Of a stretch of DNA of 64,000 nt, positions 40,368-62,476 are shown one piece after another. The position numbers were made by a program, and so were the translations under genes. Position 1 is the first letter of the stretch. Every line of letters starts with the position of its first letter. The notes beneath the pieces were generated by a model. That model was not told where the DNA came from and searched no databases. It worked only from the letters and a program-made list of their open reading frames with translations. The stretch covers positions 2,912,001 to 2,976,000 of the forward strand of contig OZ242005.1 of assembly GCA_965204725.1 (NCBI GenBank), read 5' to 3'. Origin of the DNA: Candidatus Latescibacterota bacterium. Lineage in GTDB: Bacteria > Latescibacterota > UBA2968 > UBA8231.

Positions 40368-40373
40368 GGGTCG

Positions 40374-44864: not shown

Positions 44865-44900
44865 GGCGTCCTCTACTCAGAGGACGATCTACTGCATGGG

Positions 44901-45749
44901 CTATTGACTGCGATGGATCGTTACGCCAATGTTTATCAAGTATTGGATATGGTCGTCGCTTGAAATTAATTCGCCATCTAGCCCAGTGGACCAAGCAATG
45001 TTCAGATTTCTTAGGTGCAAAATTCTCAAGGCGTCCAGACAAGCGAGCGGCTTGAAATTCGTAATACCCCGGTTGGCACTTATGTTCAGATTTTCCAACT
45101 TGGTCAGCTTTTCCAAAAAAGAAATATCCGTAAGGCTGGTCCCGTTCACCTTTAGCCTAGTCAAGTCGGTCATGTCGGCGACCAACCCGCTTATTTGAGC
45201 GTCACCAAGTTGTCGGTTGGAACCTACCGACAACACTTTCAACTTGGTCAGAGTTTTCAAGGAAGAAACATCCGTAAGGCCACTTTGGTACAAGAGCAAC
45301 GTTTCCAAGTTTTCCAGACCGGCCAAAGGAGTTACATCCTCAATGCTGTTGCCGCTTAGGCTCAGATATTCCAAGCCGGTCAGACCGGCCAAAGGCGCTA
45401 CACTCGTAATGCTGTTAACCCTTAAGATCAGAGTGTCCAAGTTGGTAGCGTGCTGAAGGCCGCGCAAACTCGTAATCCCTTTGTTGCTAGCGTCAAGCAC
45501 CCGTAGGCTATCCATGTCCGCTTCTGTTGGAACCAACGGGGCATGAATGCCTAGTTTCAACATAACCGCGTCCCTTAGCTTGGTGTCGCCAAAGTCAACG
45601 TCGCGCGAAACAGTAAACGTCCCTGTGGACGTTGCCGTGCCATCGTCCGTCACGGCTTTGTTTGAAGGGCTAAAGGCCGAGGAGTCGGACGAGCACCCGA
45701 TCCACACGGCGGCGAGGCCCGACAGGGCGAACCTAAGTAGGTTTTTCAT
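44901..45749 (-). CDS. Internalin-like leucine-rich repeat lipoprotein
   Basis: Lipobox VWIG-C; cap DFGDTKLRDAV; 22-aa LRRs (LAGLTGLEYLSLSGNSIEDVTP); AAGGAG RBS. Confidence 0.92.
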   Translation of the reverse strand: MKNLLRFALSGLAAVWIGCSSDSSAFSPSNKAVTDDGTATSTGTFTVSRDVDFGDTKLRDAVMLKLGIHAPLVPTEADMDSLRVLDASNKGITSLRGLQHATNLDTLILRVNSITSVAPLAGLTGLEYLSLSGNSIEDVTPLAGLENLETLLLYQSGLTDVSSLKTLTKLKVLSVGSNRQLGDAQISGLVADMTDLTRLKVNGTSLTDISFLEKLTKLENLNISANRGITNFKPLACLDALRILHLRNLNIAWSTGLDGELISSDDHIQYLINIGVTIHRSQ

Positions 45750-45844
45750 GGTTTTCTCCTTTTAGGTTAGGCTGTGGTGAATCCACGGCCTCATTGAAGC
45801 GGACAAGGTAGTCTATGAGCATTAAAGGGTCAAGGTCAAGGCGG

Positions 45845-46574
45845 TCATTCGATTTGGTGCTGTGGATGGTCTTTATTGGGTGCTCGACTAGGCGAAATTG
45901 TGCGAATTGTGCCTTTTGTGGCTTTCCAATGGGTTTTGAGTTCGGCGATCACGTCAATTTCGGTATGGTTCGGCAATTTACTAGGGGGGGTTTGCTCATT
46001 CTCACTAGGAATCTCTGTGCTAGGTACAACCAACAGATAGTAAATTGCCGCGGCGATGGCGTAGGATGGTTTGGCGGCCCTGCATGGCTTGGCCTTGCCC
46101 TGCCCTTGCGATGCTTTGGCGGCCCTGCGTTTCTCTTTGATCACTGCGAAGGGGGTAGCGAGGTAGTCTCGTATTCTTCTTTCGGATCGGTCGATGATCT
46201 TGAGTATTTGTTCGCGGCTATCTCCTGCGCGGTCGAGGATGTGTGCGCGGTAGGCGAGGTCGATGGCGTTGTTGCCGCGGCTGATTCGGCTGTTTTTGGC
46301 ACCGTCGGCTTTTTGCTCGTTGGTCAATCGCATCCCGAGGGGGAGGTTGTCTCGGCGCATGTAGTTGAATTGGCGATTGACCCAGTGGGCTACGATGAAC
46401 CCTGCGGCTTCCTCAGAGCAATAGACGCCGCGGTGTTTGGCGAGCTGGAGGAACTCGTTGTGGTGAGGCTGTTGTGCAGGTCGGCGGCGCCGTGGGGGTG
46501 CTTGACCCAATGGCGGCATGTGTAGAGGGTGTCTTTGGCTCTGTCGCGCATCTCTTTTTTGAGGTCGGCGAAGT
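45845..46574 (-). pseudogene. C-terminal fragment of a Rep-like protein with HTH, cut at the element edge
   Basis: QKADGAKNSRISR...AGDSREQILKIIDRSERRIRDYL resembles the HTH end of ColE2-type replicases; no start inside the element; apparent frameshift near 46460. Confidence 0.45.
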
Positions 46575-46616
46575 CCGGGGCTTACTGAAAACCCCCGGCT
46601 CAAGCGATTACGCTAA
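46575..46616 (+). pseudogene. pncB: pncB C-terminal tail
   Basis: PGLTENPRLKRLR*, a typical end for this NAPRTase subfamily, followed by the AGGAGG RBS of the next operon gene. Confidence 0.75.
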
Positions 46617-46628
46617 CAGGAGGATGGT

Positions 46629-47753
46629 ATGAGATACGATTTTGGCAGTGGATGCACAGACCCCAGCTCGTTTCCAACCGAGGCACTGGCCGAGGCGGCG
46701 AGCGCGGCCGTGCGCGCACTCGGCGCGAAGCTGGTGCGCTATCCCGGCGACATGGGCCACCAAGGCTTGCGCGAGCTCATGGCCGTGCGCGAGTCGCGGC
46801 GCGAGGGCATTGACGTGTCCGCCGATCACATCGCGCTGATGAACGGCTCCATGCAGGCTGTTACGCTGGTAGCCGAGGCGCTGATGGAAGGGCCGGGCGA
46901 CGTGATCGTCACCGAGGAATTGACCTATTCTGGGACGATTGGCGCGTACAAGCGATTGGGGGCCGAGTTGGTCGGAGTGCCGCTCGACGAGCAGGGCATG
47001 CGCGTCGATGCGCTGGCCGACGTCTTGGCCAGCTTGCACCGCAAGGGCACCCGGCCGCGCTTTATCTACACTTTGGCGACCTACCAAAACCCCACCGCCG
47101 CAGTCATGCCGCGGTCGCGCCGCCTAGAGCTGCTCGAAGTGGCTCGCTACTACGAGGCCATTGTGGTGGAGGACAACTGCTATGGCGACGTGCATTTTGA
47201 GGGGCCGCAAGAGCCGGCACTCTACGCGCTCGACGACAGCCCCAACGTCCTGTACATCGGCTCGCTGTCCAAAATTTTAGGCCCCGGGGTGCGATTGGGC
47301 TATCTGCTGGCCCGGCCGCCCATGCTGGAGCGGATCCTCGACCGCCGCTACGACGGGGGCAACAGCCTGCTGGCCGCGGCGAGCTGCGAGGCCCTGTTCC
47401 GCGACCGGCTCTGGCAGCACTTGGCCGAGACCAACGCCATCCTCCGCGAAAAGCGCGACGCCGTCTTGGCCGGTCTCGCAGCCAACGCCGGCGATCTATG
47501 CACGTGGTCGCGGCCTGTGGGCGGCATGTTCACTTGGATCGAGTTTTCCGAAGCGGTGGATCGCGATCGCCTCATGGCCTTGTGCGCCGAGCGCGGCATT
47601 GTGGTGGCGCGGGGGCAGGGCTTTCACATCCGGCGCGAGGACGTGCCGGCCATCCGCCTCGCCTTTGGCTTTGCCTCGCTGGAGGCCTGCCGCCAAGGCG
47701 TGCCCCTGTTGGCCGAGTGCATCCACGAGGCGCAGGTCCCCGTAATGGTCTGA
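46629..47753 (+). CDS. PLP-dependent aminotransferase class I/II (ARO8/MocR-like)
   Basis: YQNPT, EDNCY, GSLSKILGPGVRLGY, GGMF. Confidence 0.92.
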   Translation: MRYDFGSGCTDPSSFPTEALAEAASAAVRALGAKLVRYPGDMGHQGLRELMAVRESRREGIDVSADHIALMNGSMQAVTLVAEALMEGPGDVIVTEELTYSGTIGAYKRLGAELVGVPLDEQGMRVDALADVLASLHRKGTRPRFIYTLATYQNPTAAVMPRSRRLELLEVARYYEAIVVEDNCYGDVHFEGPQEPALYALDDSPNVLYIGSLSKILGPGVRLGYLLARPPMLERILDRRYDGGNSLLAAASCEALFRDRLWQHLAETNAILREKRDAVLAGLAANAGDLCTWSRPVGGMFTWIEFSEAVDRDRLMALCAERGIVVARGQGFHIRREDVPAIRLAFGFASLEACRQGVPLLAECIHEAQVPVMV

Positions 47754-49648
47754 TGGGCCTGCCCGAAATCGCCTTGGTCCAGCTAGCGGTCAAGCCCGGG
47801 CGACCCGACCTGAACGCGGAGCGGATGCTGGCCTTTATCGAGCAGGCGCGGGCGGCGGGCGCGGAGATCGTGGTCTTTTCCGAGCTGTGCATCAGCGGCT
47901 ATATCCTCGGCGACTTGTGGGAGATAGACGCTTACGTCGAGGACTTTGCCGCGTACAGCGACGAGATTTGCCAAGCTAGCACGGGGTTGACCGTGGTCTT
48001 TGGCAACGTGGCGATAGACCCCGTCCACAAGGGCCAAGATGGCCGGCGGCGCAAGTACAACGCCGTCTATGTGTGCTCCAACGGCGCGTACGTGGTGCGC
48101 GACGCCGTGCCCGCCGGGCTGCCCTGCGGCGTCCACCCCAAAACCCTGCATCCCAACTACCGATTCTTCGACGACGACCGGCACTTCTTCTCGCTGCGCC
48201 ACCTCGCGGAAGCAGAGGGCCGGCCGCTGGAGGACTGGCTGCATCCGTACCGGGTGCGGCTCAGGGACGGGCGGGCCTTTGGCTTTGGCGTGCAACTGTG
48301 CGAGGACATCTGGTGCGAGGACTACTGCCGCAGTGGCCGGCCCCTCGACACGCTCGCGCTGTATCACCGCCGCCGCGCTGAGGCCGTATTTAACCTCTCG
48401 GCCTCGCCCTTTACTTGGCAGAAAAGCGACAAGCGCAACCGCGTGGTGCGCCAAAGACTAGCGCACTCACCCCTGCCGTTTTTCTACGTCAACCAAGTCG
48501 GGGCGCAAAACAATGGCAAGAACATCATTGTATTTGACGGCGACAGCACCGCGTACGCGGCCACTGGATCCATTGTGTGCCGCGCTCGCCCGTGGCGGGA
48601 ACAACTCGTGCTCACCAGCCGCGCCGAGGTCGCACCGCCCCAAAGCGAAGTCGAAGCCCAGTACGCCGGCCTTCTCGCTGGGTTGCGGCACTTGGACGAC
48701 GTGCGCGGCGCGGAGAGCAAGTTCCTCATTGCGACGAGCGGCGGCGTGGACTCCAGCGTGGTCTGCTGTCTGCTGGAGCGCGCCTTTGGCCCCGAGCGCG
48801 TGTTCGCGCTCAACATGCCGACGCGCTTCAACGCCGCCGTCACCCAAGACAACGCCCGCTCGCTGTGCGCCGCGCTGGGCGTTGATTACCTTTGCTGCCC
48901 GATTGAATCGCTGTACCAAGCCGTAGCGGCCCTCGTGCAAGGCGCGGAATTTTCCGCCGGCCAAGGCGAGTACACTCAATTGGTAGATGAGAACGTGCAG
49001 GCGCGCATCCGCTTTGCCGATGTGCTTTCCGGCTTGGCGGCCAAATACGGACTCGTGTTCACGTCCAACGGCAACAAGACCGAGGTCGCTTTGGGCTATG
49101 CCACGCTCTACGGCGATGTCAGCGGCGCGGTCGCGCCGATTGCCGACCTGTACAAGGTGCAAGTCTTTGCGCTGGCGCGCTTTCTCAACGAAGAAATCTA
49201 TGGCCGCCCCGTGGTGCCGGAGAATTTGCTCGATGGCTCGGTGGTGCCCAGCGCCGAGCTGTCGGAGGCGCAAGACGTGACGCAGGGCTTGGGCGATCCG
49301 ATCAAGTATGGCTACCACGACGCCGTGCTACAGCAGTTCATCGAATACCGGCGGCACAGCAGCGATCTGTTGCAGTGGTTTATCGACGGCGTGCTGCTAG
49401 AGCGGCTGGGGTGGGACGATGCGGCGCGCTTTCGGGCGTACTTTCCAGACGCGCACCGTTGGATCGAAGACCTCGAATGGGTGGAGCACCAAGTGCGGAC
49501 CAACTACTTTAAGCGGATTCAAGCACCGCCGGTCATCGTCTTGAGCAAGCGCGCCTTTGGCTTTGATTTGCGCGAGACCCAACAGCCTTTCTACGCGCCG
49601 CGCCGCTGCGAACAGCTAAAGGCCGAGGCCCTGAAGGTGCAAATTTGA
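47753..49648 (+). CDS. nadE: Glutamine-dependent NAD+ synthetase
   Basis: CN-hydrolase domain (FSELCISGY, CEDIW) plus SGGVDS, ENVQARIR, NKTE..GYATLYGD, PSAEL. Confidence 0.95.
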   Translation: MGLPEIALVQLAVKPGRPDLNAERMLAFIEQARAAGAEIVVFSELCISGYILGDLWEIDAYVEDFAAYSDEICQASTGLTVVFGNVAIDPVHKGQDGRRRKYNAVYVCSNGAYVVRDAVPAGLPCGVHPKTLHPNYRFFDDDRHFFSLRHLAEAEGRPLEDWLHPYRVRLRDGRAFGFGVQLCEDIWCEDYCRSGRPLDTLALYHRRRAEAVFNLSASPFTWQKSDKRNRVVRQRLAHSPLPFFYVNQVGAQNNGKNIIVFDGDSTAYAATGSIVCRARPWREQLVLTSRAEVAPPQSEVEAQYAGLLAGLRHLDDVRGAESKFLIATSGGVDSSVVCCLLERAFGPERVFALNMPTRFNAAVTQDNARSLCAALGVDYLCCPIESLYQAVAALVQGAEFSAGQGEYTQLVDENVQARIRFADVLSGLAAKYGLVFTSNGNKTEVALGYATLYGDVSGAVAPIADLYKVQVFALARFLNEEIYGRPVVPENLLDGSVVPSAELSEAQDVTQGLGDPIKYGYHDAVLQQFIEYRRHSSDLLQWFIDGVLLERLGWDDAARFRAYFPDAHRWIEDLEWVEHQVRTNYFKRIQAPPVIVLSKRAFGFDLRETQQPFYAPRRCEQLKAEALKVQI

Positions 49649-49695
49649 ACGAGACCCGGAACCACGAACCAACAGCCTCCAAAGGAGCTTGTATT

Positions 49696-51297
49696 ATGAC
49701 CGACCCTATTCTGCTCACCGACGAGCAGATGCGCGAGTTTATAGTCAATGGCTATCTGGTCTTTGAGCCGACCGTGCCCGAGGGGACGCACGAAGCGTGC
49801 TATGAGCAGCTCAATCAAATCATCGACTCGGAGCTAAACCCGGGCAACAATGTCCTGCCGCGGGTGCCGGCCATGCGCCACGTGCTCAACTCGCCCCAAG
49901 TGCGCGGGGCACTCATCAGCGTCTTAGGCCCGAACTACTTGGAGCATCCGCACCGCTACTGCCACTCCCTCAAGCCCGAGGAGGACGCCGTGCCCGCGCC
50001 CGAGGCCGAGGCAAGGCTGCGCCGCAACTGCCATCAGGATGGGTACACGCCCATGGGCCATCCGCGCCAGCACTACCTGCGCTATGCGCGCATCATGTAT
50101 TACCCGCAGGATTCGCCGGTCGAACTGGGGCCGACACACGTGATCCCGGGTACGCAGTTCAATCGCGGGCTGACCGACGAGGACCGGGCGCGCGCCTTGC
50201 CACTGGCCGGCCGGGCCGGTACGGTGTCCCTGACGCACTTCGACGTGGGCCACGCGGCCGGCGTCAGCCTGCTGCCGATGCGCCGGCACATGATCAAGTT
50301 CATCTACATGCGGGCCTCCGAGCCGACGGCCCCGACTTGGGACTGCCACAGTACGCACTGGCAAAAGCCCCAGCGCATTGAGCCGCCCTACGATCTGGAA
50401 CTGGCTTGGGCGCACACTTGGGACTGGCTCTGCGGCCAGCGGGACCGCTACGCGAGCTGGCCTCAAGCCGCTGGGGACGTGGCGGCCCTCATCGCCCAGC
50501 TCGACCCAAGCGTGGATCTGGCGCAGCGGCTTGCCGCGGCCCAGCAGTTGGCTGGCGCTGATGCGGCTGCGGCCGTGCCAACGCTCGTCGAGTGCTTGGG
50601 CACCGATCACCAAGCCATGCGCACGGCTGCGACCTACGCGCTGGGCGCGATCGGCGCACCGGCGGTCGAGCCGTTGGCCCAAGCCTTGCGCGAGGCCGGG
50701 CGCGAGGCCGACCAACACGAGGCCCCGCCCGCTTGGAACGAGGGCGCGACGAACATGGAAGACGCGGCGCAAGCCCTAGCGGCCGTTGGCGCGCCGGCGG
50801 TCGAGGCACTCTGTGCATTGTTGGCGGACGAAAGCGAGTGGACGCGCGTCAACGCCGCCTTTGCCCTCGGGGAGATGGATTCGCATGCGGTGGCCGCCGT
50901 CCCGGCGCTGACGAGGACCCTCCAAGACAGCTCACACCGCTTGGTGCGCACGGCTCTGGTCGCTCTCGGCAATATCGCGCAGGGCGTACCTGTAGAAGCC
51001 TTGGGGAACATGCTCTCGGCCGACCATCCAGACTGGCGAGAGGAAGCTGTCCGCCGCTGGGTCCCCCGCGATCAGGTGCGGACCAACGCCGCGATAGCCT
51101 GCGCCCAGCTCGGCCAAGCCGCCGCTCCGTTAGAACCCCAGCTCTTCAGGGCACTCGACGACCCCTGCGGCCACGTGGGCGCATTCGCGCTTAGTGCCCT
51201 GCAACAGCTTGGCTCGCCCACAGCCAAGCAAGCCGCAATGGACTACCTCTACTCGCAACGCTGGGATGCGGCTATCGACGGCGAGCGACAGTTTTAA
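49696..51297 (+). CDS. Phytanoyl-CoA dioxygenase-like domain fused to HEAT repeats
   Basis: HQDG, YYPQD, GPTHVIPG; repeated R..AA.ALG HEAT motifs; AAGGAG RBS. Confidence 0.85.
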   Translation: MTDPILLTDEQMREFIVNGYLVFEPTVPEGTHEACYEQLNQIIDSELNPGNNVLPRVPAMRHVLNSPQVRGALISVLGPNYLEHPHRYCHSLKPEEDAVPAPEAEARLRRNCHQDGYTPMGHPRQHYLRYARIMYYPQDSPVELGPTHVIPGTQFNRGLTDEDRARALPLAGRAGTVSLTHFDVGHAAGVSLLPMRRHMIKFIYMRASEPTAPTWDCHSTHWQKPQRIEPPYDLELAWAHTWDWLCGQRDRYASWPQAAGDVAALIAQLDPSVDLAQRLAAAQQLAGADAAAAVPTLVECLGTDHQAMRTAATYALGAIGAPAVEPLAQALREAGREADQHEAPPAWNEGATNMEDAAQALAAVGAPAVEALCALLADESEWTRVNAAFALGEMDSHAVAAVPALTRTLQDSSHRLVRTALVALGNIAQGVPVEALGNMLSADHPDWREEAVRRWVPRDQVRTNAAIACAQLGQAAAPLEPQLFRALDDPCGHVGAFALSALQQLGSPTAKQAAMDYLYSQRWDAAIDGERQF

Positions 51298-52211
51298 TGT
51301 CCACTGCCCACATCACCCGCGCCCTCTCCACAATGGACGAGCCTTTTGTGCGCTACAAGATCCGCCTCAACGTCTCGACTCGCCCGCCCAGCGAGCGCGA
51401 GATTCGCATTCTCCGGGCCGAGATCCGCGAGTCGGTTTTGGTCCGAACCCTCTTGGCCGAGTTGGATGCTGCTGGCCGCATTCCCCTCCGGCCGAGCCAC
51501 CGCTGGCGCGGCGTCCATTGGGTGCTCTACATGCTGGCCGACCTAGGCTCCGCGCCCCGCGACGAGAGCCTCTGGGGCCTGCGCGACCAAGTGTGCGAGT
51601 GGCTTTTAGACCCCAATCGCCCCGAGCCGGTCTGCGGCGCGATTGAGGGCAATGCGCTGTATTACTTGCTCTTCCTCGAGATCGACGATGGCCGCGCCGA
51701 CGCCTTGGCCCAGCGCCTCGCGGGCCGCTTGCCCAAGGCATTGGGCCGCAGTCCGGCTGCCTTCGGCCAAGCGCTCACGGCCCTGCGCGGCCTCGCCCTG
51801 CACACCCGCCTCCGTGCCAACCGCGCTTCCGGCGAGGCAGCCGCCCGCCTCGCCGAGCACTTGCTCGCCCACCGCCTCTACCAAAAGCCCGATGGCCGCC
51901 CCTTGAGCGCGGACTGCGCCTCGTTGCACTATCCCTGCTACGAGCACTGCGACTTCCTCTTTGGCCTCAAGGTTATGGTCGAAACCGGCCAGATCGCCGA
52001 TGCGCGTTGCCGCGCTGCGCTCGACCTGCTCAAGTCGAAACAACTCGCCGACGGCGCGTTCCCAGCTGAGCGCAAACACTACCGAGTCGGGCGCGTCGGC
52101 AAGGGCGACGACTCCCTCGTTGATTGGGGGCGGCCCAACCGCCGCCGGCCCAACCTCCACGTCACCTGCGACGCGCTCGGCGTGCTCCACGCTGCGGGCG
52201 AGCGGTTTTGA
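51297..52211 (+). CDS. Hypothetical protein, prenyltransferase/terpene-cyclase-like fold
   Basis: WRGVHW, LHYPCY, ALDLLKSKQLADGAFPAE (QW-like motif). Confidence 0.6.
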   Translation: MSTAHITRALSTMDEPFVRYKIRLNVSTRPPSEREIRILRAEIRESVLVRTLLAELDAAGRIPLRPSHRWRGVHWVLYMLADLGSAPRDESLWGLRDQVCEWLLDPNRPEPVCGAIEGNALYYLLFLEIDDGRADALAQRLAGRLPKALGRSPAAFGQALTALRGLALHTRLRANRASGEAAARLAEHLLAHRLYQKPDGRPLSADCASLHYPCYEHCDFLFGLKVMVETGQIADARCRAALDLLKSKQLADGAFPAERKHYRVGRVGKGDDSLVDWGRPNRRRPNLHVTCDALGVLHAAGERF

Positions 52212-53182: not shown

Positions 53183-53204
53183 CTTTAGAGAAAGGACGCA
53201 TCCG

Positions 53205-54083: not shown

Positions 54084-54131
54084 GGGATGGCTCTGAAGAA
54101 GTCTCAACAGGTGGGTTTTCAGACAGCCTCT

Positions 54132-54212
54132 AAGGATCGAGGGCATCTTGCCCTCGTCGAGGGCGGGACGCCCTCGATCCCGGACGTAGCACAGTAGGTG
54201 TCGCGTACTTAG
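54132..54212. repeat. Palindromic REP-like dispersed repeat, copy 2
   Basis: Matches 1530-1623. Confidence 0.85.
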
Positions 54213-54276
54213 ATCGTTTAGTATAACTCAAAAAGGTTCTGCTCTGGCAAAAACGACGACAGCGCGGCGCGATTTC

Positions 54277-55053
54277 TCCGTCGCCGTAACCACCACCTCG
54301 CGCCCCCGGCCCCAAGAGTGTGCGACCGCCCGCGGCCTCGCGACCGCAACCGGCTGCCCCTACGTGCCCCGGGGCCAAGACGCGCTCGCCCAAACCGCTG
54401 GCCGCGCTGGCTGCACCGGCCTACTCGTGGTCGAGCGCACTGATCTTTCTCTGTGGGTTGCCGGGCGGCGTTTCCGCTACCATCCCAACATGGCCAAGCT
54501 GCGCGTGTTGGCCTTGCGACAACGCAAAAGGGATGCCCTAATCGCCGCTATGGAGATCGCCCCGGGAGAAAGCGTCCTCGACTGCACCTGCGGACTGGGG
54601 GCCGACGCCATCGTCGCCTCTTGGGTGGTTCGCCCGGCGGGCCGCGTGCGCGCCCTCGAAGCCTCGCCCCTGTTGGCCCTGCTAGTTGAGCGCGGCATGG
54701 CCTCCTGTGTGCTCGACGACCCGCCCGACCTCGTCCCGGCCATGCGCCGCGTCGAGGTTTGCTGCGCCGACTTTGCCCGCTATCTGCGCGACGAAGCCGA
54801 CAACACTTGGGATGTCGTGTACTTCGATCCCATGTTCACGGAGACCATTGCCGGCTCCGAGGGACTAAATTTGGTCCGCTGCTTGGCCGAGGAGGGCGGC
54901 CCTTCCCCGGCCGACCTAGACCAAGCCCGCCGCGTCGCTCGCCGCCGAGTGGTAATGAAGGATCGCCGGCCCGGCCACGCGCTCACCCACCTTGGTTTTG
55001 CCAAAGTCGAGGAAGGCCGCCGCGTCTGCTACGGCGCACTCCCCGCTTGGTAG
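54277..55053 (+). CDS. RsmJ-like class I SAM methyltransferase, N-terminal frameshift
   Basis: YHPNMA, VLDCTCGLGADA, VVYFDPMF, RRVVMK; an upstream VAVTTTSRP segment is out of frame at ~54326; start unresolved. Confidence 0.8.
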   Translation, partial: SVAVTTTSRPRPQECATARGLATATGCPYVPRGQDALAQTAGRAGCTGLLVVERTDLSLWVAGRRFRYHPNMAKLRVLALRQRKRDALIAAMEIAPGESVLDCTCGLGADAIVASWVVRPAGRVRALEASPLLALLVERGMASCVLDDPPDLVPAMRRVEVCCADFARYLRDEADNTWDVVYFDPMFTETIAGSEGLNLVRCLAEEGGPSPADLDQARRVARRRVVMKDRRPGHALTHLGFAKVEEGRRVCYGALPAW

Positions 55054-55080
55054 CTGTCCATAAGATGAAAGGAACGGATC

Positions 55081-55845
55081 GTGGAGCTATCCTGTTGTGC
55101 TTGGGCCTTGACCGGCCCGGAAGAAGACGCCCTTACTGCGCTGGCCGCTATCGGCTTCCGCTCCATTGACGTGCAGGCCAAGACCTTTGTCGGCCCCACA
55201 GCGCGAGCGCGCATCGACGACCTCGGCCTGTCGGTCTCCTGCCTCGCGCTGTCTTTTAACATGGAAGACGGTGCGGCTCTCGACGGCACGACAGCCGCTG
55301 CCCGACAAGCCGCCCTCGACCACTGCCGAGAAGCCCTCGACCACGCCGCCGCCCTCGGCGCCCGCACCGCGTACGTAGTCCCGGGAATCGATGCGGCCGC
55401 GCTGCCCCAGTTTGGCGAGGCCCTAAGACACGTGGCAGACTTCGCAGCCGAGCGGGCGATCCGCGTCGGGATTGAACACTTCCCCGGTAAGGCACTGCCG
55501 ACCGCGACCGGGACCTTAGAGTACCTGTCTCACCTGAATCACCCCAACCTCTACTTGCTCCTCGACACCGGGCATCTACAGATCGCTAGGGAAGACCCGG
55601 CCGCGGTCATCGCTGCGGCCGGAGACCGGCTCGGGTACGTGCATCTAGACGACAACGACGGGGAGGCCGACTTGCACTGGCCCCTGCTGGCGGGTGTGCT
55701 GACTGAGGAAGCGCTCGCCGCGACTTTCGCCGCCCTCGCTCTAAGTCCGTACGACGGCCCGGCGAGCATTGAGCTCAGCTCCCAACTTCCCACCCCCAGG
55801 GCCGCCTTGGCCCAAAGCCGCGCTTGCGCCTTGCAATGCGGCTAA
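55081..55845 (+). CDS. Sugar phosphate isomerase/epimerase (AP endonuclease 2 TIM barrel)
   Basis: GIEH, LDTGH, VHLDDNDG..DLH, SIEL. Confidence 0.88.
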   Translation: MELSCCAWALTGPEEDALTALAAIGFRSIDVQAKTFVGPTARARIDDLGLSVSCLALSFNMEDGAALDGTTAAARQAALDHCREALDHAAALGARTAYVVPGIDAAALPQFGEALRHVADFAAERAIRVGIEHFPGKALPTATGTLEYLSHLNHPNLYLLLDTGHLQIAREDPAAVIAAAGDRLGYVHLDDNDGEADLHWPLLAGVLTEEALAATFAALALSPYDGPASIELSSQLPTPRAALAQSRACALQCG

Positions 55846-55868
55846 CCGAGCAAAGTAGAAAGTAGATC

Positions 55869-57596
55869 ATGCCCATCCTGCTTTTAGTTGCCTTGGCCTT
55901 CATCGCCTGCACTGGCGAAGAGGGCGGATACGTTCTCAAAAAGGTGCCGCGCAACCGGACTTTGATCATGGATTGTCCCGAGGCCAATACCTGTGCCGGC
56001 CAGATTAAAGATTACAACTCCTTCAACCCCTTCATCCCGGGCAGCATCTCGCGGATCGGGTTCAACTTCCTGTACGAGCCGCTCTACTTCTTCAATGCCT
56101 ACGAGGAAAATTCCGCGCTAATGCCTTGGATCGCCGAGAGCCACCGCTTCAACGAGGATTACACCGAGCTGGAGGTCAAAATCCGTCCAGGCGTCGAGTG
56201 GAGCGACGGCCAGCCGTGGTCGGCGCACGACTTGGCCTTTACCATCAACATGCTCGTGGAGCACGCCCCCCAGCTCGTGTACTCGACGGATATGGCGACT
56301 TGGGTCAAAGAGGCGGTCGCCCTCGACAGCCTGACGGCGCGCATCACCCTCAAGGAGCCCAATCCGCGCTTCCTCTTCAGCTACTTCGTCCACAGCGGCG
56401 ACCAAGGCGTCCCCATCGTGCCCAAGCATATCTGGGCGGGCAAAGACCCCCTGACTTTTGCCAACTTCGACCTGCAAAAAGGCTGGCCGGTTGTGACCGG
56501 CCCCTATCATATTGCGCGCTCGGAGCCGGCCCAACGGATCTGGGATCGGCGCGAGGGCTGGTGGGCGGAGAAACTCGGCTTTCAGGAACCGCCGCAGGTC
56601 GAGCGGCTGATTTACCTGACCTACATGGAGGAGCACAAGCGCGTCCAAAACCTGATCGCCAACAACATCGACACCTGCTTGGAGCTGCGCCCGGCCAACA
56701 TGGTTTCCCTATTGGAGCGCAATCGCAACATCACGACTTGGACTGGCCGCGAGCCGCCGTATAGCTACATCACTTGGTGGCCCATATCGCTGGGGTTCAA
56801 CGGGCTAGAAGCCCCTTGGTCCGATCCCGCGATGCGCCGCGCGGTCAACTACGCCATTGACCGCGAGCGGCTCGTGACCATCGGCTGGCAAAACTCAGGG
56901 GCATGGACCCTGCTGCCCTTACCCGATCTCCCGCAGATGCAGCGGTATTTTGCCCTCGCCGAGGATTTGGTCGCCGAGCACCAAGTCGGCGTCTTCGACT
57001 TGGCAAAGAGCGCGGAGATACTCGCCGGCAAAGGCTACATGCACAACGGGGTTTTCTGGGAAAAGGACGGGCAACCTCTGCGCATGGTCATCGACATCTT
57101 CTCGCACTTTCAGGACCTGACGCCGGTGCTCATCGCCCAGCTCAAAAAGGCCGGCATCGACGCCTCCTTCCGCATGACCTCAGACTTTTCTACGCGCCTA
57201 CGCCAAGGCACGGCTCGCACCTACCTAATTGGCAATTTCAGCTCCATGCGCGACCCCTATTTTGTCCTGCGCCAGTACCAAAGCCGCTTTGTCCAGCCCA
57301 CGGGCGAACCGGCCGACATGCCTTGGCGTTGGCAAAACCCGGCTTACGACGCGCTGATCGACCAGATGGGCCAAACTCCGGCGGACGCCCCGGCGATGGA
57401 CGAGCTCTACCGCAAGGCCATGGACATCTGGCTTGCCGAATTGCCCTCCATTCCCCTCGTCCAGTGGCCGCACCGCATCCCGCACAACGAGACCTATTGG
57501 ACCAACTGGCCCAGCGCGGAAAACTCCTACATCAACAGCGCGTACTGGAGCCGCACTTGGCTTTTGGTGCTCTTGAACTTGCGGCCGCAGCGGTGA
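55869..57596 (+). CDS. ABC transporter substrate-binding lipoprotein, family 5
   Basis: Lipobox FIAC; LYEPL, IRPGVEWSDG, TGPY, MRRAVNYAIDR. Confidence 0.92.
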   Translation: MPILLLVALAFIACTGEEGGYVLKKVPRNRTLIMDCPEANTCAGQIKDYNSFNPFIPGSISRIGFNFLYEPLYFFNAYEENSALMPWIAESHRFNEDYTELEVKIRPGVEWSDGQPWSAHDLAFTINMLVEHAPQLVYSTDMATWVKEAVALDSLTARITLKEPNPRFLFSYFVHSGDQGVPIVPKHIWAGKDPLTFANFDLQKGWPVVTGPYHIARSEPAQRIWDRREGWWAEKLGFQEPPQVERLIYLTYMEEHKRVQNLIANNIDTCLELRPANMVSLLERNRNITTWTGREPPYSYITWWPISLGFNGLEAPWSDPAMRRAVNYAIDRERLVTIGWQNSGAWTLLPLPDLPQMQRYFALAEDLVAEHQVGVFDLAKSAEILAGKGYMHNGVFWEKDGQPLRMVIDIFSHFQDLTPVLIAQLKKAGIDASFRMTSDFSTRLRQGTARTYLIGNFSSMRDPYFVLRQYQSRFVQPTGEPADMPWRWQNPAYDALIDQMGQTPADAPAMDELYRKAMDIWLAELPSIPLVQWPHRIPHNETYWTNWPSAENSYINSAYWSRTWLLVLLNLRPQR

Positions 57597-57600
57597 TGGG

Positions 57601-58896
57601 TTACAAGAGCCGTCCCTCTTTTTGCAGAATATCTCCGGCAATCGCGTAGGTCGTTCCGTGCATGGCAATGACGACGAGGCCGATTCCGGCCGCGAGGTAG
57701 CCCCCGAGATACAAGTTGGGTACGTCAATCGACTCGTAGTTGTGGGCGTGGGTCTGTGCTTGATCCACTTGGAATCGGTAGTTGTCGCGCATGGGCGTTA
57801 GGGTCAGCGGCGCAAAGCCCTGCAAGATCGAATAGTCGGCCGTGCCGCCGATTTCCTTGATCACGTGATCGACCTCCACCGCTTGGTCGCCCTCGGACGT
57901 TTTCAGCCCGACTCGGCCATCCTCGGCGATCTGGGTCACCTCGGTGTGATACAAGGTTTTGAGCCGGGATGAGCGGCTTTCGAGGATTTCGGCGATGCGC
58001 TGGTAATAAGGCAACCCGTGGCGGCTGTCGTTGATTAGCTGCCAATGGACCGCTGGCCCTTGGCGCATGGCGTAGTACACCTGCTTGCCAGCGTCGTGCA
58101 ATTCGGTCGCGGCCCAATCGCCCGAGCGCCCGCCGCCAACGACGAGCACCCGCTCGCCGGGGAAGTCTTCGGGCTTGTCGTAGTGCGCGGTGGCAAAAGG
58201 ATAGGTCTCCCCCTCAACACCCAGCGACCGCAATCGACCGCGCTGGCCGGTTGCTAAGACCAAGTACTTACAGGTGTAGCGCTGCTCAACGCCCGTTTGC
58301 ACGTGCCGACTGGTGAGTTGAAAGCCCCTTTCGTGCGGTTCAATCCGCTCGACCTCCTCAAAGGTGCGAATGCGCTCCGCCACCTCAAAGCGCTCGGGCA
58401 CTCGGTGATAGTATTCGATCAAGTCGGTCTTGAGGATTAGGGCATTGACGTCTAAGGCGCGCCCGACTTCTGCGGCGTACTGGGCCAGCGGATAAAAGGC
58501 GAACTCCATCCACTGCCCCGGCGACAAGGTCAGCAGGTTGTGCGGTGCTCGGTTCCACAACCCGCCGACCGGCTCGCGGCTGATGAGCAGGGCGTCCAAC
58601 GGCTCGCCGCGCCGAAAGTCCATGGCGACTTGGTCCAGTTCCTCAAAAAGCTGGCGCGGGTGGTGCAGCGTGCGAAAGAGGTCAACGGGCTTGATGCCGC
58701 TCTGCACGAGCTGGCGCGTATCCAGCCCCAACAGCGAGCGGTCGAACTGCTGCAAGTACCCGGCGAGCGGCGCGTAGCGCACGGCAAACATCCGGCTGTT
58801 GCGGAAGAAAGGATGCCAGCCGCCCAAGACCACGGCGAGGGGTAGGCCCGCTGGCCCCCCGCCGACGATGATGACGGTGTGGTGTTCTGTGCTCAT
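57601..58896 (-). CDS. FAD/NAD(P)-dependent oxidoreductase (Pyr_redox_3-like)
   Basis: GGGPAG, VLATG, VVGGGRSG. Confidence 0.88.
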   Translation of the reverse strand: MSTEHHTVIIVGGGPAGLPLAVVLGGWHPFFRNSRMFAVRYAPLAGYLQQFDRSLLGLDTRQLVQSGIKPVDLFRTLHHPRQLFEELDQVAMDFRRGEPLDALLISREPVGGLWNRAPHNLLTLSPGQWMEFAFYPLAQYAAEVGRALDVNALILKTDLIEYYHRVPERFEVAERIRTFEEVERIEPHERGFQLTSRHVQTGVEQRYTCKYLVLATGQRGRLRSLGVEGETYPFATAHYDKPEDFPGERVLVVGGGRSGDWAATELHDAGKQVYYAMRQGPAVHWQLINDSRHGLPYYQRIAEILESRSSRLKTLYHTEVTQIAEDGRVGLKTSEGDQAVEVDHVIKEIGGTADYSILQGFAPLTLTPMRDNYRFQVDQAQTHAHNYESIDVPNLYLGGYLAAGIGLVVIAMHGTTYAIAGDILQKEGRLL

Positions 58897-59093
58897 CTCA
58901 TCTCGGTTGTTTCAGTCGTTTCAATCAAAGGCATTACCAGCTTACCAGCAGCACAACGAGCACGACGAAGGCAACGACAGCGAGGGCGGTACGGATTGAC
59001 GAGCGCGGGGCATGCGGGGTGCTCCCCGAGGCGATGAGCGGATAGAGTGACGCGCACCGAGTCGCGTGTACCAGGTGCGCGTATAGACAAGGA

Positions 59094-59531
59094 TTAGGGC
59101 TGGCTCAGATCGGTAGGCTCGTCGGGAGCAACAGGCGCGGCTTGAGCAACGGGCGCGGCCGGAGCGACCGGCGTAGCTTGCGGCCACTTGTGTACAGCCA
59201 GACCCCCCGCCGCCAGACCAATAGTAACCAGAATACCGATAACCCAACAAAAAATCGTGGATTGCTGACGCATATCATCCTTTATCTCGGCGCGCAAATC
59301 TTTCACCGCCGTATCCAATGCGCCACGCATCTCCTTGACCGCCTCATTCGTCATAAGACGCATCTCAGCAATCACCTGGTCAAACCGAGCCTCCACCTTC
59401 TCAAACCGAGCCTCCACCTTCTCAAACCGGGGTTCTAAGATGGCGCCGATCAATTCGATTTGCTCCTTGCTAAGGGTCGTGGAGCCTTGCCCGCGCTCTT
59501 GCTCTTGACCCTCTGTGCGTTGCTCGCTCAT
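59094..59531 (-). CDS. Coiled-coil protein with a C-terminal TM segment (DUF1640/Bdr-like)
   Basis: FEKVEAR tandem heptads, KDLRAEIK, WVIGILVTIGL. Confidence 0.7.
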   Translation of the reverse strand: MSEQRTEGQEQERGQGSTTLSKEQIELIGAILEPRFEKVEARFEKVEARFDQVIAEMRLMTNEAVKEMRGALDTAVKDLRAEIKDDMRQQSTIFCWVIGILVTIGLAAGGLAVHKWPQATPVAPAAPVAQAAPVAPDEPTDLSQP

Positions 59532-59684
59532 AGCTCGTCCCCCGATGGGAATAGTGAATATATAATACAAACTCCTCGTAAGAGGTAAAAACTGCCAAAA
59601 AAAAGGCCGACACCCGAAACCCATCGAGTGCCGACCTTGACCTAAACTACCAACGAATAAGACAGACAGACCTACTCGTCATCG

Positions 59685-60926
59685 TCACAGCGAGTCAAAA
59701 TACGCCACCACGTCCGTATGACCCCGACGCGCCGCCAAGGCCCGAGCCGTCTCGCCGCCGTTGTCCGTAGCCGTGACGCTCGCCCCCTGACCCACCAAAT
59801 ACTTGACCACCGCCAAACGACCCCAAAACGCCGCAGTGTGCAGTACCGTCCTGCCCCGTTGATCCCTAGTCGTGAAGCTCACCCCTTGACTCACCAGATA
59901 CTTGACCACCGCCAAACGACCCCCCAGTGCCGCAATGGCCAGAGCCGTAGAGCCGATACTGCTCGTAGCCGTGGTGCTCGCTCCCGCACCCACGAGATAC
60001 TTCACTACCTCCAAATGACCACGGTACGACGCCTTATGCAGAGGCGTCCCGCCGCCGTCGTCCGTAGCATTCACATTCGCTCCCGCACCCACCAAATACT
60101 TGACCACCGCCAGTTGACCACCAAACGCCGCATAGTGCAGAGGCGTATGGTCGCTTGGGTCGGTAGCCTCAAGAGACATACCTGACTGTACGAATAGCTG
60201 GGCAATGTCTAATTCGCCCCTCTGAGCCGCCCTAAGAAAAACAACAACCGTATAGGTGATACCCCTCCGCTCCAATTCAGCCAGCGCTCGTTCGGACGAC
60301 TTCAAATAGTCCGCAATCGCCGTATTACCCACCGTCACCGCCACAGACCAAGCGGTCGTACGCTGGTCATAGCCCACCGCGAGCACATCCGCGCCCGACT
60401 CCACGAGAAAACGAACCACCGACAAGTTGTTCGCTATGCCCGCCGCATTCATCAACACCGTAAAGCCGTCCTCATCACGGGCCTCGAGATTCGCACCCGC
60501 TCCCACTAAGAACTGAACCACCGACAAATGACCACCATACGCCGCCTCATACAACGCCGTCCAACCTAATTCGTCATCCGCCTCCTCAAGAGACATACCC
60601 GCCGCCACAAACAACTTCACGGTCGCCAAATCCCCCGACTGAGCCGCCAAACGAAACGCCGCGCCCGTATAGGCGATACCCTGCGAATCCAACTCCGCCT
60701 TCGCTTGTTCGGGCGTCAACGATTCGTCCGTAGCAACCTTCGCCGCCGACACCGACAAACCCGCACCCGCCACCGCCGATGCGCCATCCAGCGCGACGGG
60801 CTGGGCCGCTGTTGCGCTCTCGATCTCAGCCGACGGTGCGCCCGCAGGCCCCACAGGTTTCGGGTCCTTGCCACAACCGGCCACGATGACCGACAGACAT
60901 ACGAATACTCCGAATAATGCTTTCAA
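59685..60926 (-). CDS. Ankyrin-repeat lipoprotein
   Basis: Lipobox VAG-C; multiple GxTPLHxAA..G.L.VVKYLV..GA repeats; AAGGAG RBS before a TTG start. Confidence 0.95.
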   Translation of the reverse strand: MKALFGVFVCLSVIVAGCGKDPKPVGPAGAPSAEIESATAAQPVALDGASAVAGAGLSVSAAKVATDESLTPEQAKAELDSQGIAYTGAAFRLAAQSGDLATVKLFVAAGMSLEEADDELGWTALYEAAYGGHLSVVQFLVGAGANLEARDEDGFTVLMNAAGIANNLSVVRFLVESGADVLAVGYDQRTTAWSVAVTVGNTAIADYLKSSERALAELERRGITYTVVVFLRAAQRGELDIAQLFVQSGMSLEATDPSDHTPLHYAAFGGQLAVVKYLVGAGANVNATDDGGGTPLHKASYRGHLEVVKYLVGAGASTTATSSIGSTALAIAALGGRLAVVKYLVSQGVSFTTRDQRGRTVLHTAAFWGRLAVVKYLVGQGASVTATDNGGETARALAARRGHTDVVAYFDSL

Positions 60927-60998
60927 TTAGATGCTCTCCTTGAGAGTATGGTGAAAGGTAAAACGACTACGCGCCTATTGAAAACCAACAGCCCAATA

Positions 60999-61027
60999 CG
61001 GGTCATCCCCGCGGGCGCGGGGAACTG
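60999..61027 (-). CRISPR. Solitary type I-E CRISPR repeat unit (no array, no cas genes)
   Basis: Minus strand CAGTTCCCCGCGCCCGCGGGGATGACCCG, 25/29 identical to the E. coli I-E repeat GAGTTCCCCGCGCCAGCGGGGATAAACCG; 7-bp stem intact. Confidence 0.8.
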
Positions 61028-61198
61028 AGGCGCGCCTTCATTAAGCTATGCCCCCCGGCAGATAGCGTCAATCCCTACCGCGAACACGAACACTCAGCCC
61101 TGCATGTCCAATTCGCCGCGGTAAAACGGCCCGCCAACGACTCGCATACCGAGCGCGGCCACAACCCGCGCACCCCCCCTCAACCCGTGACCGCGGCC

Positions 61199-61295
61199 CC
61201 TAGTCGAGCACCCCCATCCAGCCGCCTAGTCGAGCACCCGCGTACCGAATTTTCGCCCGATTCGCACAAAAGCCACAATTCGCACAAAAGCCACC
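61199..61295. repeat. Iteron-like repeats
   Basis: CCTAGTCGAGCACCC x2 (61199, 61225) and ATTCGCACAAAAGCCAC x2 (61260, 61278). Confidence 0.85.
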
Positions 61296-61312
61296 AAGCC
61301 TACCCATCAAAT

Positions 61313-61495
61313 CTAGTCGCTGGGATCGAAGTCCGTATCCGGCACATTCGACACAAAACCAATCGACTCCGGCCCCTCGCCCGGCTCCACGTCCCCACCA
61401 ACCAGAGACTCCAACCGATCTATGCGAGCCTCCAACCGTTCCACCGCCGCCCGTAAACCACGAACCTCAGCCAACAACTCATCATACTCAGACAT
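61313..61495 (-). CDS. Small coiled-coil hypothetical protein
   Basis: MSEYDELLAEVRGLRAAVERLEARIDRLESL; G-rich RBS. Confidence 0.55.
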   Translation of the reverse strand: MSEYDELLAEVRGLRAAVERLEARIDRLESLVGGDVEPGEGPESIGFVSNVPDTDFDPSD

Positions 61496-61604
61496 CACAC
61501 CCCCCTTAGAAATGAGTGAACAAAAAAACCAGTCCGCCGCGACACCCAAGACACCTAACCAGTCCAACCCAGCCGTCCGCGCAAGCGACAGCAAGAGAGA
61601 TAGC

Positions 61605-62069
61605 CTACCCGCCCTGCGACTCCAAGTACTCCACTACCGCCGTATGACCCCCCTCTTGGGCGAAGTCTTTGGCTGTCCAGCAGTAGTCGTAGGTGGCCCC
61701 TACGCGGGCCCCGATACCCACCAGAACCTGCAAAAACGTATTGCTACTGTCGACCTTAGCGTTTATATCCGCACCCTGCTCTACTAAAAAACGAACTACC
61801 GACAAATGACCACCATACGCCGCCTCGTGCAAAGTCGTAAAGCCGAGGATGCCCTCGGTGTCAACCGACATGCCCGCCCGCACAAACAGTTTGACAACCA
61901 CCAAGTCACCACTCGCAGCCGCATTATTAAAAGACATAGCCGTATAGTCGATACCCAGATCCGCCAACGCAAAACGTGCCTCCGCCGGCGTCAGACGCTC
62001 GTCCTTGTCCCCCTCATCCCCGCCACACCCCAACGACAAGCCAAACAAGACCAAGACCAAACAACGCAT
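61605..62069 (-). CDS. Short ankyrin-repeat lipoprotein
   Basis: Lipobox SLG-C; TLHEAAYGGHLSVVRFLVEQGADIN; paralog of 59685-60926. Confidence 0.9.
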   Translation of the reverse strand: MRCLVLVLFGLSLGCGGDEGDKDERLTPAEARFALADLGIDYTAMSFNNAAASGDLVVVKLFVRAGMSVDTEGILGFTTLHEAAYGGHLSVVRFLVEQGADINAKVDSSNTFLQVLVGIGARVGATYDYCWTAKDFAQEGGHTAVVEYLESQGG

Positions 62070-62445: not shown

Positions 62446-62476
62446 CAACCTCCGTGAAAGATTTATAAGCCTTTGG

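Follow-up and report, generated by a model that had tools for sequence, protein, structure and literature searches.

The 64,000-nucleotide stretch of DNA analysed here (the window) carries a 9116-bp insertion (island 1) that is probably what remains of a capsid-forming phage satellite of ~10 kb, now immobile. An LRR lipoprotein gene would be its surviving accessory cargo, and two ankyrin lipoprotein genes from a second island would stem from a common mobile pool. The earlier note had proposed that a satellite may spread these three proteins among symbionts. This reading is partly supported, as a historical and lineage-specific one: in its favour stand the LRR gene inside a satellite remnant, the linkage of LRR genes to terL and a related element with an ankyrin gene (L198), whereas the ankyrin island lacks head genes, the window copy is immobile, the LRR cassette deviates in composition and such cargo is rare in relatives. 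Since the LRR gene lies inside a worn-out satellite remnant, such satellites may have delivered these genes.

The head module of island 1 and its decay

Island 1 was delimited by synteny. In three closed genomes of the same genus, the sequences matching 36153-37458 and 46575-51295 are only ~237 bp apart, and relatives match the pncB-like side at 90-93% identity only up to ~37458. The insertion took the place of 237 bp of pncB, the Pfam QRPTase_N/C match of the remaining fragment stopping at residue 236, and its left junction is spanned by contigs from runs of three studies. The syntenic core also includes a HEAT-repeat gene (49645-51297). The features of the region are as follows.

36684..37458, + strand: 5' part of a pncB-like gene (nicotinate/quinolinate phosphoribosyltransferase-like), its last ~237 bp gone and the island in their place
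37459..46574, no strand: island 1, a 9116-bp insertion interpreted as the remnant of a capsid-forming satellite
37884..38414, + strand: 176-aa ORF with the second-strongest third-position G/T bias of the genome (keto3 rank 2/3895); no family match in Pfam or PHROGs
38850..40367, + strand: terminase large subunit (TerL), 505 aa, intact (phrog_9, 2.6e-59)
40374..40697, + strand: HNH endonuclease (Pfam HNH; phrog_144 at 1e-13)
40709..41965, + strand: HK97-fold major capsid gene, disrupted (Pfam Phage_capsid and homology to a 417-aa paralogue)
41983..42537, + strand: prohead serine protease, S78 (Pfam Peptidase_S78, 1e-19)
42625..43599, + strand: portal protein (Pfam Phage_portal, 1.9e-18)
43813..44121, + strand: 102-aa coiled-coil ORF, the final skewed gene ahead of the LRR cassette (keto3 rank 17); no family match in Pfam and PHROGs searches
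44278..44736, no strand: two tandem copies of a ~205-bp unit in the unskewed cassette (repeat families D4 and D5)
44901..45749, - strand: LRR lipoprotein, 282 aa (Pfam LRR_4, 6e-26; lipobox ...VWIGC, then SSD)
45750..46574, no strand: skewed right end of island 1 (GC skew 0.23, AT skew -0.32); no gene identified, neither long ORF having a Pfam or PHROG match

According to Pfam and PHROGs, island 1 holds a tail-less head module in the order terL-HNH-capsid-protease-portal, the HNH endonuclease being a packaging partner in HK97-type modules. The same searches revealed no tail or holin genes in the 9.1 kb of the island and no integrase, alpA or replication gene in 37459-46574. TerL has 295 homologues, with a top identity of 74%, and the portal aligns with residues ~41-356 of related portals. 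The capsid gene is clearly damaged: homology to the 417-aa paralogue (51% identical) spans 40709-41965, ~100 nt are out of frame, with stops at 41681 (TAG), 41702 (TGA) and 41708 (TAG), an 11-nt tandem duplication lies beyond the out-of-frame stretch, and the Pfam Phage_capsid match of the 338-aa ORF is limited to profile positions 9-159. Neither an att-like direct repeat flanking the island nor an att duplication was found, and no tRNA was found in the window.

With no integrase, alpA or replication gene and with a broken capsid, the window copy is a relic, incapable of moving on its own. Its intact TerL, HNH, protease and portal genes could fit a satellite that is still active and mobilised in trans, by the integrase of another copy or by a helper phage. 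This is hardly to be expected, given the broken capsid gene, the partly deleted target gene and the lack of visible att repeats, and given that the genome's two further head-module copies are likewise fragmentary (two TGA stops interrupt terL in L001) and that no convincing excision joint appeared in public runs. One candidate joint (X1, 37159>46250) was rejected as a repeat artefact, with a short side of 22 letters and a position off the synteny breakpoints. In a further observation (X2), contig depth was unequal between the flanks and the island, contig depths being unable to rank parts.

The chromosomal position of the cluster and its missing integrase also recall a gene transfer agent (GTA), that is, a domesticated head cluster maintained by the host. 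Alphaproteobacterial GTAs include tail genes, are vertically conserved and are kept intact. The window cluster, in contrast, is tail-less, broken and strain-specific: of 31 same-genus genomes a single one has it, the other 30 all lacking a TerL relative above 32% identity, and it replaced part of a host gene. A GTA-like origin is therefore very improbable.

A family of tail-less elements of ~10 kb

The relatives of island 1 are elements of ~10 kb in which int, alpA and replication genes accompany the same head module, with the family gene order int-alpA-rep-terL-(HNH)-capsid-protease-portal. The MAGs that host them span nine phyla, and many of these MAGs bear names that refer to sponges. Among the 80 best genome loci, blastp detected the capsid in 75, the portal in 72, an integrase in 50 and alpA in 31, and Pfam adds further integrase cases. 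Replication-type domains in these relatives comprise D5_N/DUF5906, AAA_25, PF03090 and PriCT, and their connector or adaptor proteins include an Ad1 adaptor (L120), a gp6-like (L015) and a gp10-like (L016) protein, and phrog_490; no connector or adaptor was recognised in the window island. As for terS, the ORFs upstream of terL in the window lack Pfam and PHROG matches, and no conserved family appears at this position across 72 relatives.

No tail tube, tape measure, baseplate, fibre or holin families were seen in the relatives' ORFs examined, which comprised 150 non-core ORFs from 18 loci (Pfam), 59 ORFs (PHROGs) and 56 ORFs from six viral contigs. The sole tail-named match was a weak one to the tail-terminator phrog_123 in L171, whose PHROG category is 'connector'. 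The term 'satellite-like', used in the earlier note, fits island 1 because the insertion holds a head/packaging module only and its relatives are ~10 kb long, integrase-bearing and tail-less.

It could be argued that island 1 descends from a complete tailed prophage that was stripped of its tail, lysis and lysogeny modules by deletion, since this copy is clearly decayed and head modules alone cannot tell a phage from a satellite. The relatives make this improbable. Those with an integrase measure only ~10 kb from integrase to portal, L198 is bounded by att sites at 10.1 kb, and many homologues lie on contigs of 9-10 kb (contigs of 8.5-10.6 kb hold 34 of the 119 non-self TerL homologues among the matches listed). 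Moreover, the identity of TerL to any of 50,697 phage records does not exceed 27%.

The closest relatives of TerL (55-74%) occur solely on ENA/Logan contigs, and a scan of JGI metagenomes found none above 49% identity. Neither TerL nor the paralogous capsid, each scanned singly against IMG/VR, gave a match, and alignment queries were used instead. When the non-core parts of both islands were compared by blastx with the proteins of 80 viral loci, no match was obtained. In the papers searched for sponge satellites or gene transfer agents, no description of this tail-less element family was found.

Repeat lipoproteins and their possible link to satellites

The ankyrin genes are located in island 2, which, like island 1, is missing from the closed same-genus genomes compared and is strain-specific. 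Relatives match 57587-58896 and then end, and in G012 homology restarts at the equivalent of 65314. No packaging genes were detected in this island with Pfam or PHROGs. Its features are the following.

58897..64000, no strand: island 2, a strain-specific stretch whose locus is variable, extending past the window to ~65313
59094..59624, - strand: 176-aa coiled-coil protein, membrane helix at its C terminus; three further ankyrin islets have a paralogue
59685..60926, - strand: 413-aa ankyrin lipoprotein carrying the cap module twice (Ank_4 at 7e-57; keto3 rank 15)
61313..61594, - strand: small coiled-coil ORF, 93 aa, from the ORF list; Pfam match weak only
61605..62069, - strand: 154-aa ankyrin lipoprotein carrying the cap module once (Ank_4 at 2e-12; keto3 rank 21)
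62164..62595, - strand: membrane protein with a superinfection-immunity domain (Pfam Imm_superinfect 5e-14; phrog_1039 7e-20)
62654..63481, - strand: 275-aa ORF that matched no family; it shares a paralogous segment with another ankyrin islet (tblastn, C1:2560167-2560415, 83 aa at 76% identity)

Pfam confirmed the LRR and ankyrin assignments of the earlier note, with Ank_4 at 188.5 and 47.6 bits and LRR_4 at 90.3 bits (gathering cut-offs 22.7 and 27). The lipoboxes that it had read were also recovered: all three N-termini fit a PROSITE-like rule, which accepts 119 of 4177 crude ORF calls of the genome (2.8%). The lipobox is conserved in 4/4 LRR paralogues, in four ankyrin paralogues and in 12 of 13 homologues fetched from other metagenome contigs, the exception being P0245, and the genome (G000) encodes LspA and Lgt (PF01252 and PF01790, above cut-offs). 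The three proteins would be lipid-anchored and may be exposed at the surface, with a possible role towards a eukaryotic host. A motif search bore out the cap module described as occurring three times in the two ankyrin proteins (two copies plus one). Nine copies exist genome-wide, every one in an ankyrin gene and with 46-78% identity to the first; eight of the nine lie where a terL match is absent, and a motif search of IMG/VR did not find the cap.

The same note had placed all three genes within two skewed islands, which holds only in part. The skew is real: 37.5-44.1 kb and 45.75-46.6 kb show a GC skew of ~+0.25 and an AT skew of ~-0.14 to -0.32, against a genome-wide standard deviation of GC skew of 0.078 (2-kb windows), and the ankyrin stretch (59-62.6 kb) shows the mirrored skew. 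The LRR gene itself, however, is unskewed. Its stretch (44.1-45.75 kb) has a lower GC content (0.49) and a skew of 0.03, flanked by skewed DNA, and the composition of the gene is that of the background (keto3 rank 860/3895). The head genes of the window and the cap-type ankyrin genes, by third-position G/T bias, all rank at or above position 54 of 3895, and extreme usage of G/T-ending codons is also found in a Ser/Thr kinase and in a superinfection-immunity gene. These rare codons, common to the ankyrin family and the head genes of island 1, point to a common mobile gene pool. Strand-specific C-to-T hypermutation was rejected as the cause of the skew, G3 being raised along with T3.

The linkage of LRR genes to head modules is consistent within this genome. 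The LRR gene of the window is located within the inserted DNA of island 1, and LRR genes adjoin terL in 3/3 head-module copies, with paralogues in both other remnants; L001 and L002 have contiguous DNA from the 3' end of terL through the LRR gene in common (85% and 78% identity). Outside this genome, an intact element of 10.1 kb (L198), whose ends at a tRNA-Met gene are marked by a 13-nt direct repeat, carries an ankyrin gene between portal and attR, in the same slot and orientation as the LRR gene of the window (downstream of portal, reverse). L198 shows that a related element can carry an ankyrin gene, but a survey of 240 related loci (3.1 Mb) found an ankyrin gene nearby in only two, L198 alone holding it within the element, and an LRR gene in none, and Pfam detected no ANK, LRR or TPR domains among the non-core ORFs of 18 related loci. 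The closest homologues of the LRR protein (66-78% identical) and of the ankyrins (55-59%) are on contigs of 81-157 kb, and no TerL-bearing contig among the matches listed has the same length as one of these. Within the same genus the top LRR match is 50% identical; 168 genomes of the phylum yielded no match at E <=1e-45 except in G027, and none was found in 50 genomes holding TerL relatives.

These data leave some room for an incidental link, according to which LRR and ankyrin genes are ordinary accessory genes, evolving fast, that duplicate and settle wherever the chromosome is plastic, remnants of dead mobile elements included, and are not borne by satellites. Several observations would fit: the background composition of the LRR cassette within a strongly skewed island, a free-standing LRR cassette (92% identity to that of L001) whose locus lacks head genes, the absence of packaging genes from most ankyrin islets, the 238 of 240 related elements without such a gene, and the HEAT-repeat gene in the syntenic core. 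This explanation is nevertheless considered unlikely, though by no means negligible. The same terL-LRR junction in two diverged copies, together with the 3/3 adjacency, is hard to obtain by independent landing, the rare codon signature recurs in ankyrin and head genes alike, the ankyrin gene of L198 lies within att sites, and close relatives of the LRR gene are missing from the phylum.

In the satellite explanation that we favour, the family elements, which combine integrase, AlpA-type regulator and replication protein with HK97-type head machinery (TerL, HNH, capsid, protease, portal, small connectors) and in which no tail or lysis genes were seen, would take the tails required for movement from a helper phage. 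In the window copy, the integrase end is gone, as are 237 bp of the target gene, and the capsid gene is broken, but the LRR lipoprotein gene survives intact in the accessory slot past portal, in reverse orientation. The satellite, not a later local insertion, would have brought this gene in, although the cassette could have been inserted after the death of the element. The two ankyrin genes, in a second strain-specific island, represent an island-borne family with a cap module in common.

Comparison with known systems and significance

The family resembles the capsid-forming satellites known as cf-PICIs, for which PMC10085698 gives a SatelliteFinder model of eleven core components and a catalogue in Enterobacteria and Firmicutes. 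As compared with that description, the likeness extends to a size of ~10 kb, a tyrosine integrase with a P4-type arm domain, AlpA, a primase/replication gene, TerL, HNH, an HK97-type capsid, a prohead protease, a portal and head-tail adaptor/connector proteins, with distal accessory genes and with no tail tube, tape measure, baseplate, fibre or holin seen. The family differs in that terS was not identified, TerL reaches at most 27% identity to the phage records searched, and the hosts are MAGs of nine phyla beyond Enterobacteria and Firmicutes. The window island itself retains TerL, HNH, capsid (disrupted), prohead protease and portal (5/5), and none of integrase, AlpA/MerR and primase-replicase; at least five of the eleven core components of that model are missing.

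Ankyphages from sponge viromes offer a second comparison. According to bioRxiv 10.1101/608950, their ANKp protein lowers phagocytosis and inflammatory signalling in mouse cells, and both cases involve mobile phage-derived DNA with secreted ankyrins (predicted ones here) in symbiont communities. In that paper, ankyphages have a P22-type coat protein, are treated as phages and encode ankyrins with plain signal peptides, the word 'lipoprotein' not being used; here, the element is tail-less and head-only, the ankyrins have lipoboxes, and their genes in the window do not adjoin head genes. With phage morons and the accessory genes of PICIs and SaPIs, the LRR gene shares a compositionally distinct reverse cassette, with a terminator-like hairpin, at the end of a structural operon; the cargo differs, being a eukaryote-like repeat lipoprotein here and toxin, resistance or defence genes there.

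Eukaryote-like repeat proteins characterise the symbionts of animals, and their spread between unrelated bacteria is poorly understood. Capsid-forming satellites package only themselves, and in model systems they can use the tails of different phages. A broader proposal, which we put forward tentatively and regard as rather doubtful in its full extent, is that capsid-forming satellites of ~10 kb circulate in at least nine phyla of sponge-type symbiont communities and that at least one lineage has served as a vehicle for eukaryote-like lipoproteins, the vehicle decaying and the cargo being kept. G/T-ending codons would then mark one mobile pool, with a replication or mutation history apart from that of the host and of other satellites. 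If capsid-forming satellites do move repeat proteins, gene sharing across phyla would be explained. Independently of the cargo question, this family of tail-less elements is large, spans nine phyla and provides concrete loci for satellite biology outside Enterobacteria and Firmicutes.

Predicted repeat lipoproteins and strain-specific insertions

The window, ~60% GC, is a stretch of chromosome with many defence and toxin-antitoxin genes. Pfam identifies the LRR protein and the two ankyrin proteins of the earlier note:

44901-45749, minus strand, LRR protein of 282 aa
59685-60926, minus strand, ankyrin protein of 413 aa
61605-62069, minus strand, ankyrin protein of 154 aa

As that note had proposed, all three are predicted lipoproteins. 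At their N-termini a short charged segment leads into a hydrophobic one and then a lipobox cysteine, and a PROSITE-like lipobox rule selected 3/3 of them versus 119 of the 4177 crude ORF calls of the genome. The lipobox is kept in the four LRR paralogues (4/4), in four ankyrin paralogues and in 12 of the 13 homologues examined from other contigs, and the source genome encodes Lgt and LspA. The cap module described as common to the ankyrin proteins was confirmed with a relaxed motif: the 5.4-Mb genome has nine matches, all nine within ankyrin genes and three of them in the two window proteins (46-78% identity to the first copy). A HEAT/Armadillo-repeat protein of 550 aa is encoded at 49645-51297, in the core syntenic with relatives, indicating that eukaryote-like repeat genes are not all island-borne here.

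In three closed same-genus genomes, collinearity with the window breaks off at 37458 and returns at 46575; the equivalent positions are separated there by only ~237 bp, the 3' terminus of a pncB-like gene. Island 1 is therefore an insertion of 9116 bp that took the place of this gene end. No target duplication was found at its ends, and no tRNA was found in the window. Its left junction is bridged, with zero differences, by contigs from runs of three studies, and is thus not an assembly artefact. Further right, homology with same-genus relatives ends at 58896 and one relative resumes at the equivalent of 65314, so that island 2 represents strain-specific DNA at a variable locus. All three genes lie inside strain-specific islands, although the LRR gene itself is unskewed, contrary to the earlier description. 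A third strain-specific insertion (30300-36150), missing from three same-genus genomes, holds restriction-modification genes (a fused type I methylase/specificity gene and a C5 cytosine methylase) and two genes matching phage families only (phrog_3694 and phrog_3984). To the right of the window, a short repeat of ~57 nt + ~146 nt (G000:C1:2976947-2977151; about 947-1151 of locus L014), with more than 100 genomic copies at 80-100% identity, resembles a MITE or REP element.

A decayed head module and its family

Island 1 encodes TerL, HNH, an HK97-type capsid, an S78 protease and a portal, and neither Pfam nor PHROGs revealed tail, lysis, integrase or replication genes in it. The window copy, devoid of the integrase, alpA and replication end, is a relic that cannot act as a live vehicle. 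Deletion of that end also removed 237 bp of the host pncB-like gene. The capsid gene aligns along its whole length with a 417-aa paralogue, and at 41660-41790 ~100 nt of it are shifted out of frame, the main frame being interrupted by TAG, TGA and TAG; the end of this stretch lies close to an 11-nt tandem duplication, so that the frame is recovered downstream. These look like two real lesions, not a single sequencing error. Two other head-module remnants are present in the genome, and TerL proteins above 32% identity were not found in any of the 30 other genomes of the genus.

Other head-module remnants in the source genome
L001: terL fragment with two TGA stops, LRR gene, HNH, intact capsid gene, protease fragment
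L002: terL C-terminal fragment, with an LRR gene on one flank and an ankyrin gene on the other

TerL homologues number 295 at E 1e-10 or better, and 34 of the 119 non-self matches listed lie on contigs of 8.5-10.6 kb. The nearest TerL relatives, 55-74% identical, come from contigs of about 8.9-10 kb, 22.6 kb and 25.5 kb. An alignment-based scan retrieved 517 relatives in IMG/VR and at least 346 in species-representative genomes (members include L120-L199 from genome contigs, L015-L094 from IMG/VR, and L208-L226). The family gene order is int-alpA-rep-terL-(HNH)-capsid-protease-portal, spanning ~10 kb from integrase to portal; among the best 80 of the at least 346 genome loci, a capsid is found in 75, a portal in 72, an integrase in 50 and alpA in 31. 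Locus L198 (6881-16978) is an intact member of 10.1 kb, inserted at a tRNA-Met gene whose 3' end is repeated directly, over 13 nt, at both element ends.

Pfam analysis of 150 non-core ORFs from 18 loci revealed replication proteins, HNH, transposases and assorted accessory genes, and PHROGs analysis of 59 ORFs from relatives gave similar gene kinds plus an Ad1 adaptor. No tail tube, tape measure, baseplate, fibre or holin family was seen in either set, and six viral contigs presented a similar picture. The sole tail-named match is a weak one to a tail terminator (phrog_123, PHROG category "connector") in L171, one of the related loci.

The family occurs in MAGs of nine phyla, frequently in multiple copies per genome. 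In a quick maximum-likelihood tree built from 78 TerL sequences, 22 phylum-label changes are required versus a minimum of 8, and some well-supported sister pairs join different phyla; because many of the loci are on closed chromosomes, binning error cannot account for all of this mixing. The branch leading to the window TerL is long, and the weakly supported pairing of this protein with L198 may be an artefact. Against 50,697 phage records, the best TerL identity is 27% or less. The record titles of several loci name presumed sponge-associated taxa, such as Ca. Spongiisociaceae and Ca. Palauibacter rhopaloidicola. No description of these ~10 kb elements was found in the paper library searched: on sponge phage satellites it gave one review, and none of the gene-transfer-agent papers listed concerns sponge symbionts, as judged by titles and abstract openings. 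Annotations of this kind could exist in supplementary files.

Lipoprotein genes as possible satellite cargo

The earlier note had regarded the three lipoproteins as cargo of satellite-like DNA, an interpretation that is partly supported. In this genome satellite-derived DNA repeatedly holds an LRR lipoprotein gene, but the window copy is no longer a live vehicle. The LRR gene of the window is part of the inserted DNA and has skewed DNA of the element type on either side; it lies downstream of the portal and in reverse orientation, a position and orientation matched by the ankyrin gene of L198. LRR paralogues also adjoin terL in both L001 and L002, which share a contiguous stretch of the terL 3' end and the LRR gene (DNA identity of 85% and 78%), meaning that this junction is older than their divergence. 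A further point in favour is that the gene has no close relative in the 168 phylum genomes (best match, 50% identical). Against the cargo reading, the LRR cassette has background composition, unlike the surrounding element; a solo LRR lipoprotein cassette (G000:C1:3471518-3472345; L012:5518-6345), with no head genes near it, matches the L001 copy at 92% identity over 1.3 kb; none of 240 related loci (3.1 Mb) has an LRR gene; and the best outside homologues (66-78% identical) are on contigs of 89-146 kb. Next to the LRR gene's 3' end, a ~205-bp AT-rich unit occurs twice in tandem (44278-44736), the two copies sharing a 41-nt core of 100% identity, and a perfect-spacing palindrome is present at 44694-44737.

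In the case of the ankyrins, a relative (L198) does carry such a gene, but island 2 has no packaging genes and is not a satellite. It encodes, in order, a coiled-coil membrane protein, an ankyrin, a small coiled-coil ORF, an ankyrin, a superinfection-immunity-domain protein and an ORF of no family, and some of these genes are found again, in part, at four further islets. Three observations link the ankyrins to the satellite, all of them indirect: codon usage, the cap-type ankyrin gene directly adjoining the terL fragment in L002, and the L198 ankyrin gene, which lies inside the att sites, between portal and attR, and has no signal peptide. On the other side, eight of the nine cap modules have no terL at their sites, the motif was not found in IMG/VR, and the best ankyrin homologues (55-59% identical) are on contigs of up to 157 kb. 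Five contig sizes (14035, 13474, 42302, 219840 and 831728), two of them ~14 kb, are common to the homologues listed for LRR and for ankyrin, which is only a hint that both gene kinds are neighbours, and travel together, in other organisms; none of these sizes is among the TerL matches listed.

The codon evidence comes from ranking 3895 genes of at least 100 aa by third-position G/T bias. About 30 genes genome-wide exhibit an extreme preference for G- or T-ending codons (C3 ~0.10-0.24 vs ~0.3-0.5 in genes of background composition). In the window they lie at 37884-44121 and 59094-62595, and the set comprises the window head genes, the cap-type ankyrins, a Ser/Thr kinase (C1:2554630-2555424) and an immunity-domain protein, among others.

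Ranks by third-position G/T bias (of 3895 genes)
Island 1: ORF 37884-38414, 2; terL, 5; HNH, 23; capsid, 54; protease, 32; portal, 22; coiled-coil ORF 43813-44121, 17
Island 2: ankyrins, 15 and 21; neighbouring immunity-domain gene, 8; coiled-coil gene, 26
Elsewhere: eight other ankyrin genes (5/8 with the cap module), 1 to 28

The bias is missing from related satellites (mean GC skew of 0.067 over 71 loci vs 0.246 in the window copy), from the L001 and L002 copies and from the LRR genes, so the signature marks one gene pool, and neither the family nor the host. Simple C-to-T deamination fails to account for it, since G3 is raised besides T3.

Relation to known satellites and phages

Sponge ankyphages, found as contigs with a P22-type coat, are described as encoding signal-peptide ankyrins that reduce phagocytosis in mouse cells (bioRxiv 10.1101/608950). 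The architecture of the present family is that of capsid-forming PICIs (cf-PICIs) as defined in PMC10085698, with the difference that no small terminase was recognised among the ORFs upstream of terL, either in the window or in relatives. The expectation that related satellites would carry this kind of cargo holds for the ankyrin of L198 but for no LRR gene in the 240 loci, and across the sampled members of the family cargo of this type is rare. The present case can be placed among putative cf-PICI-like satellites with eukaryote-like lipoprotein cargo.
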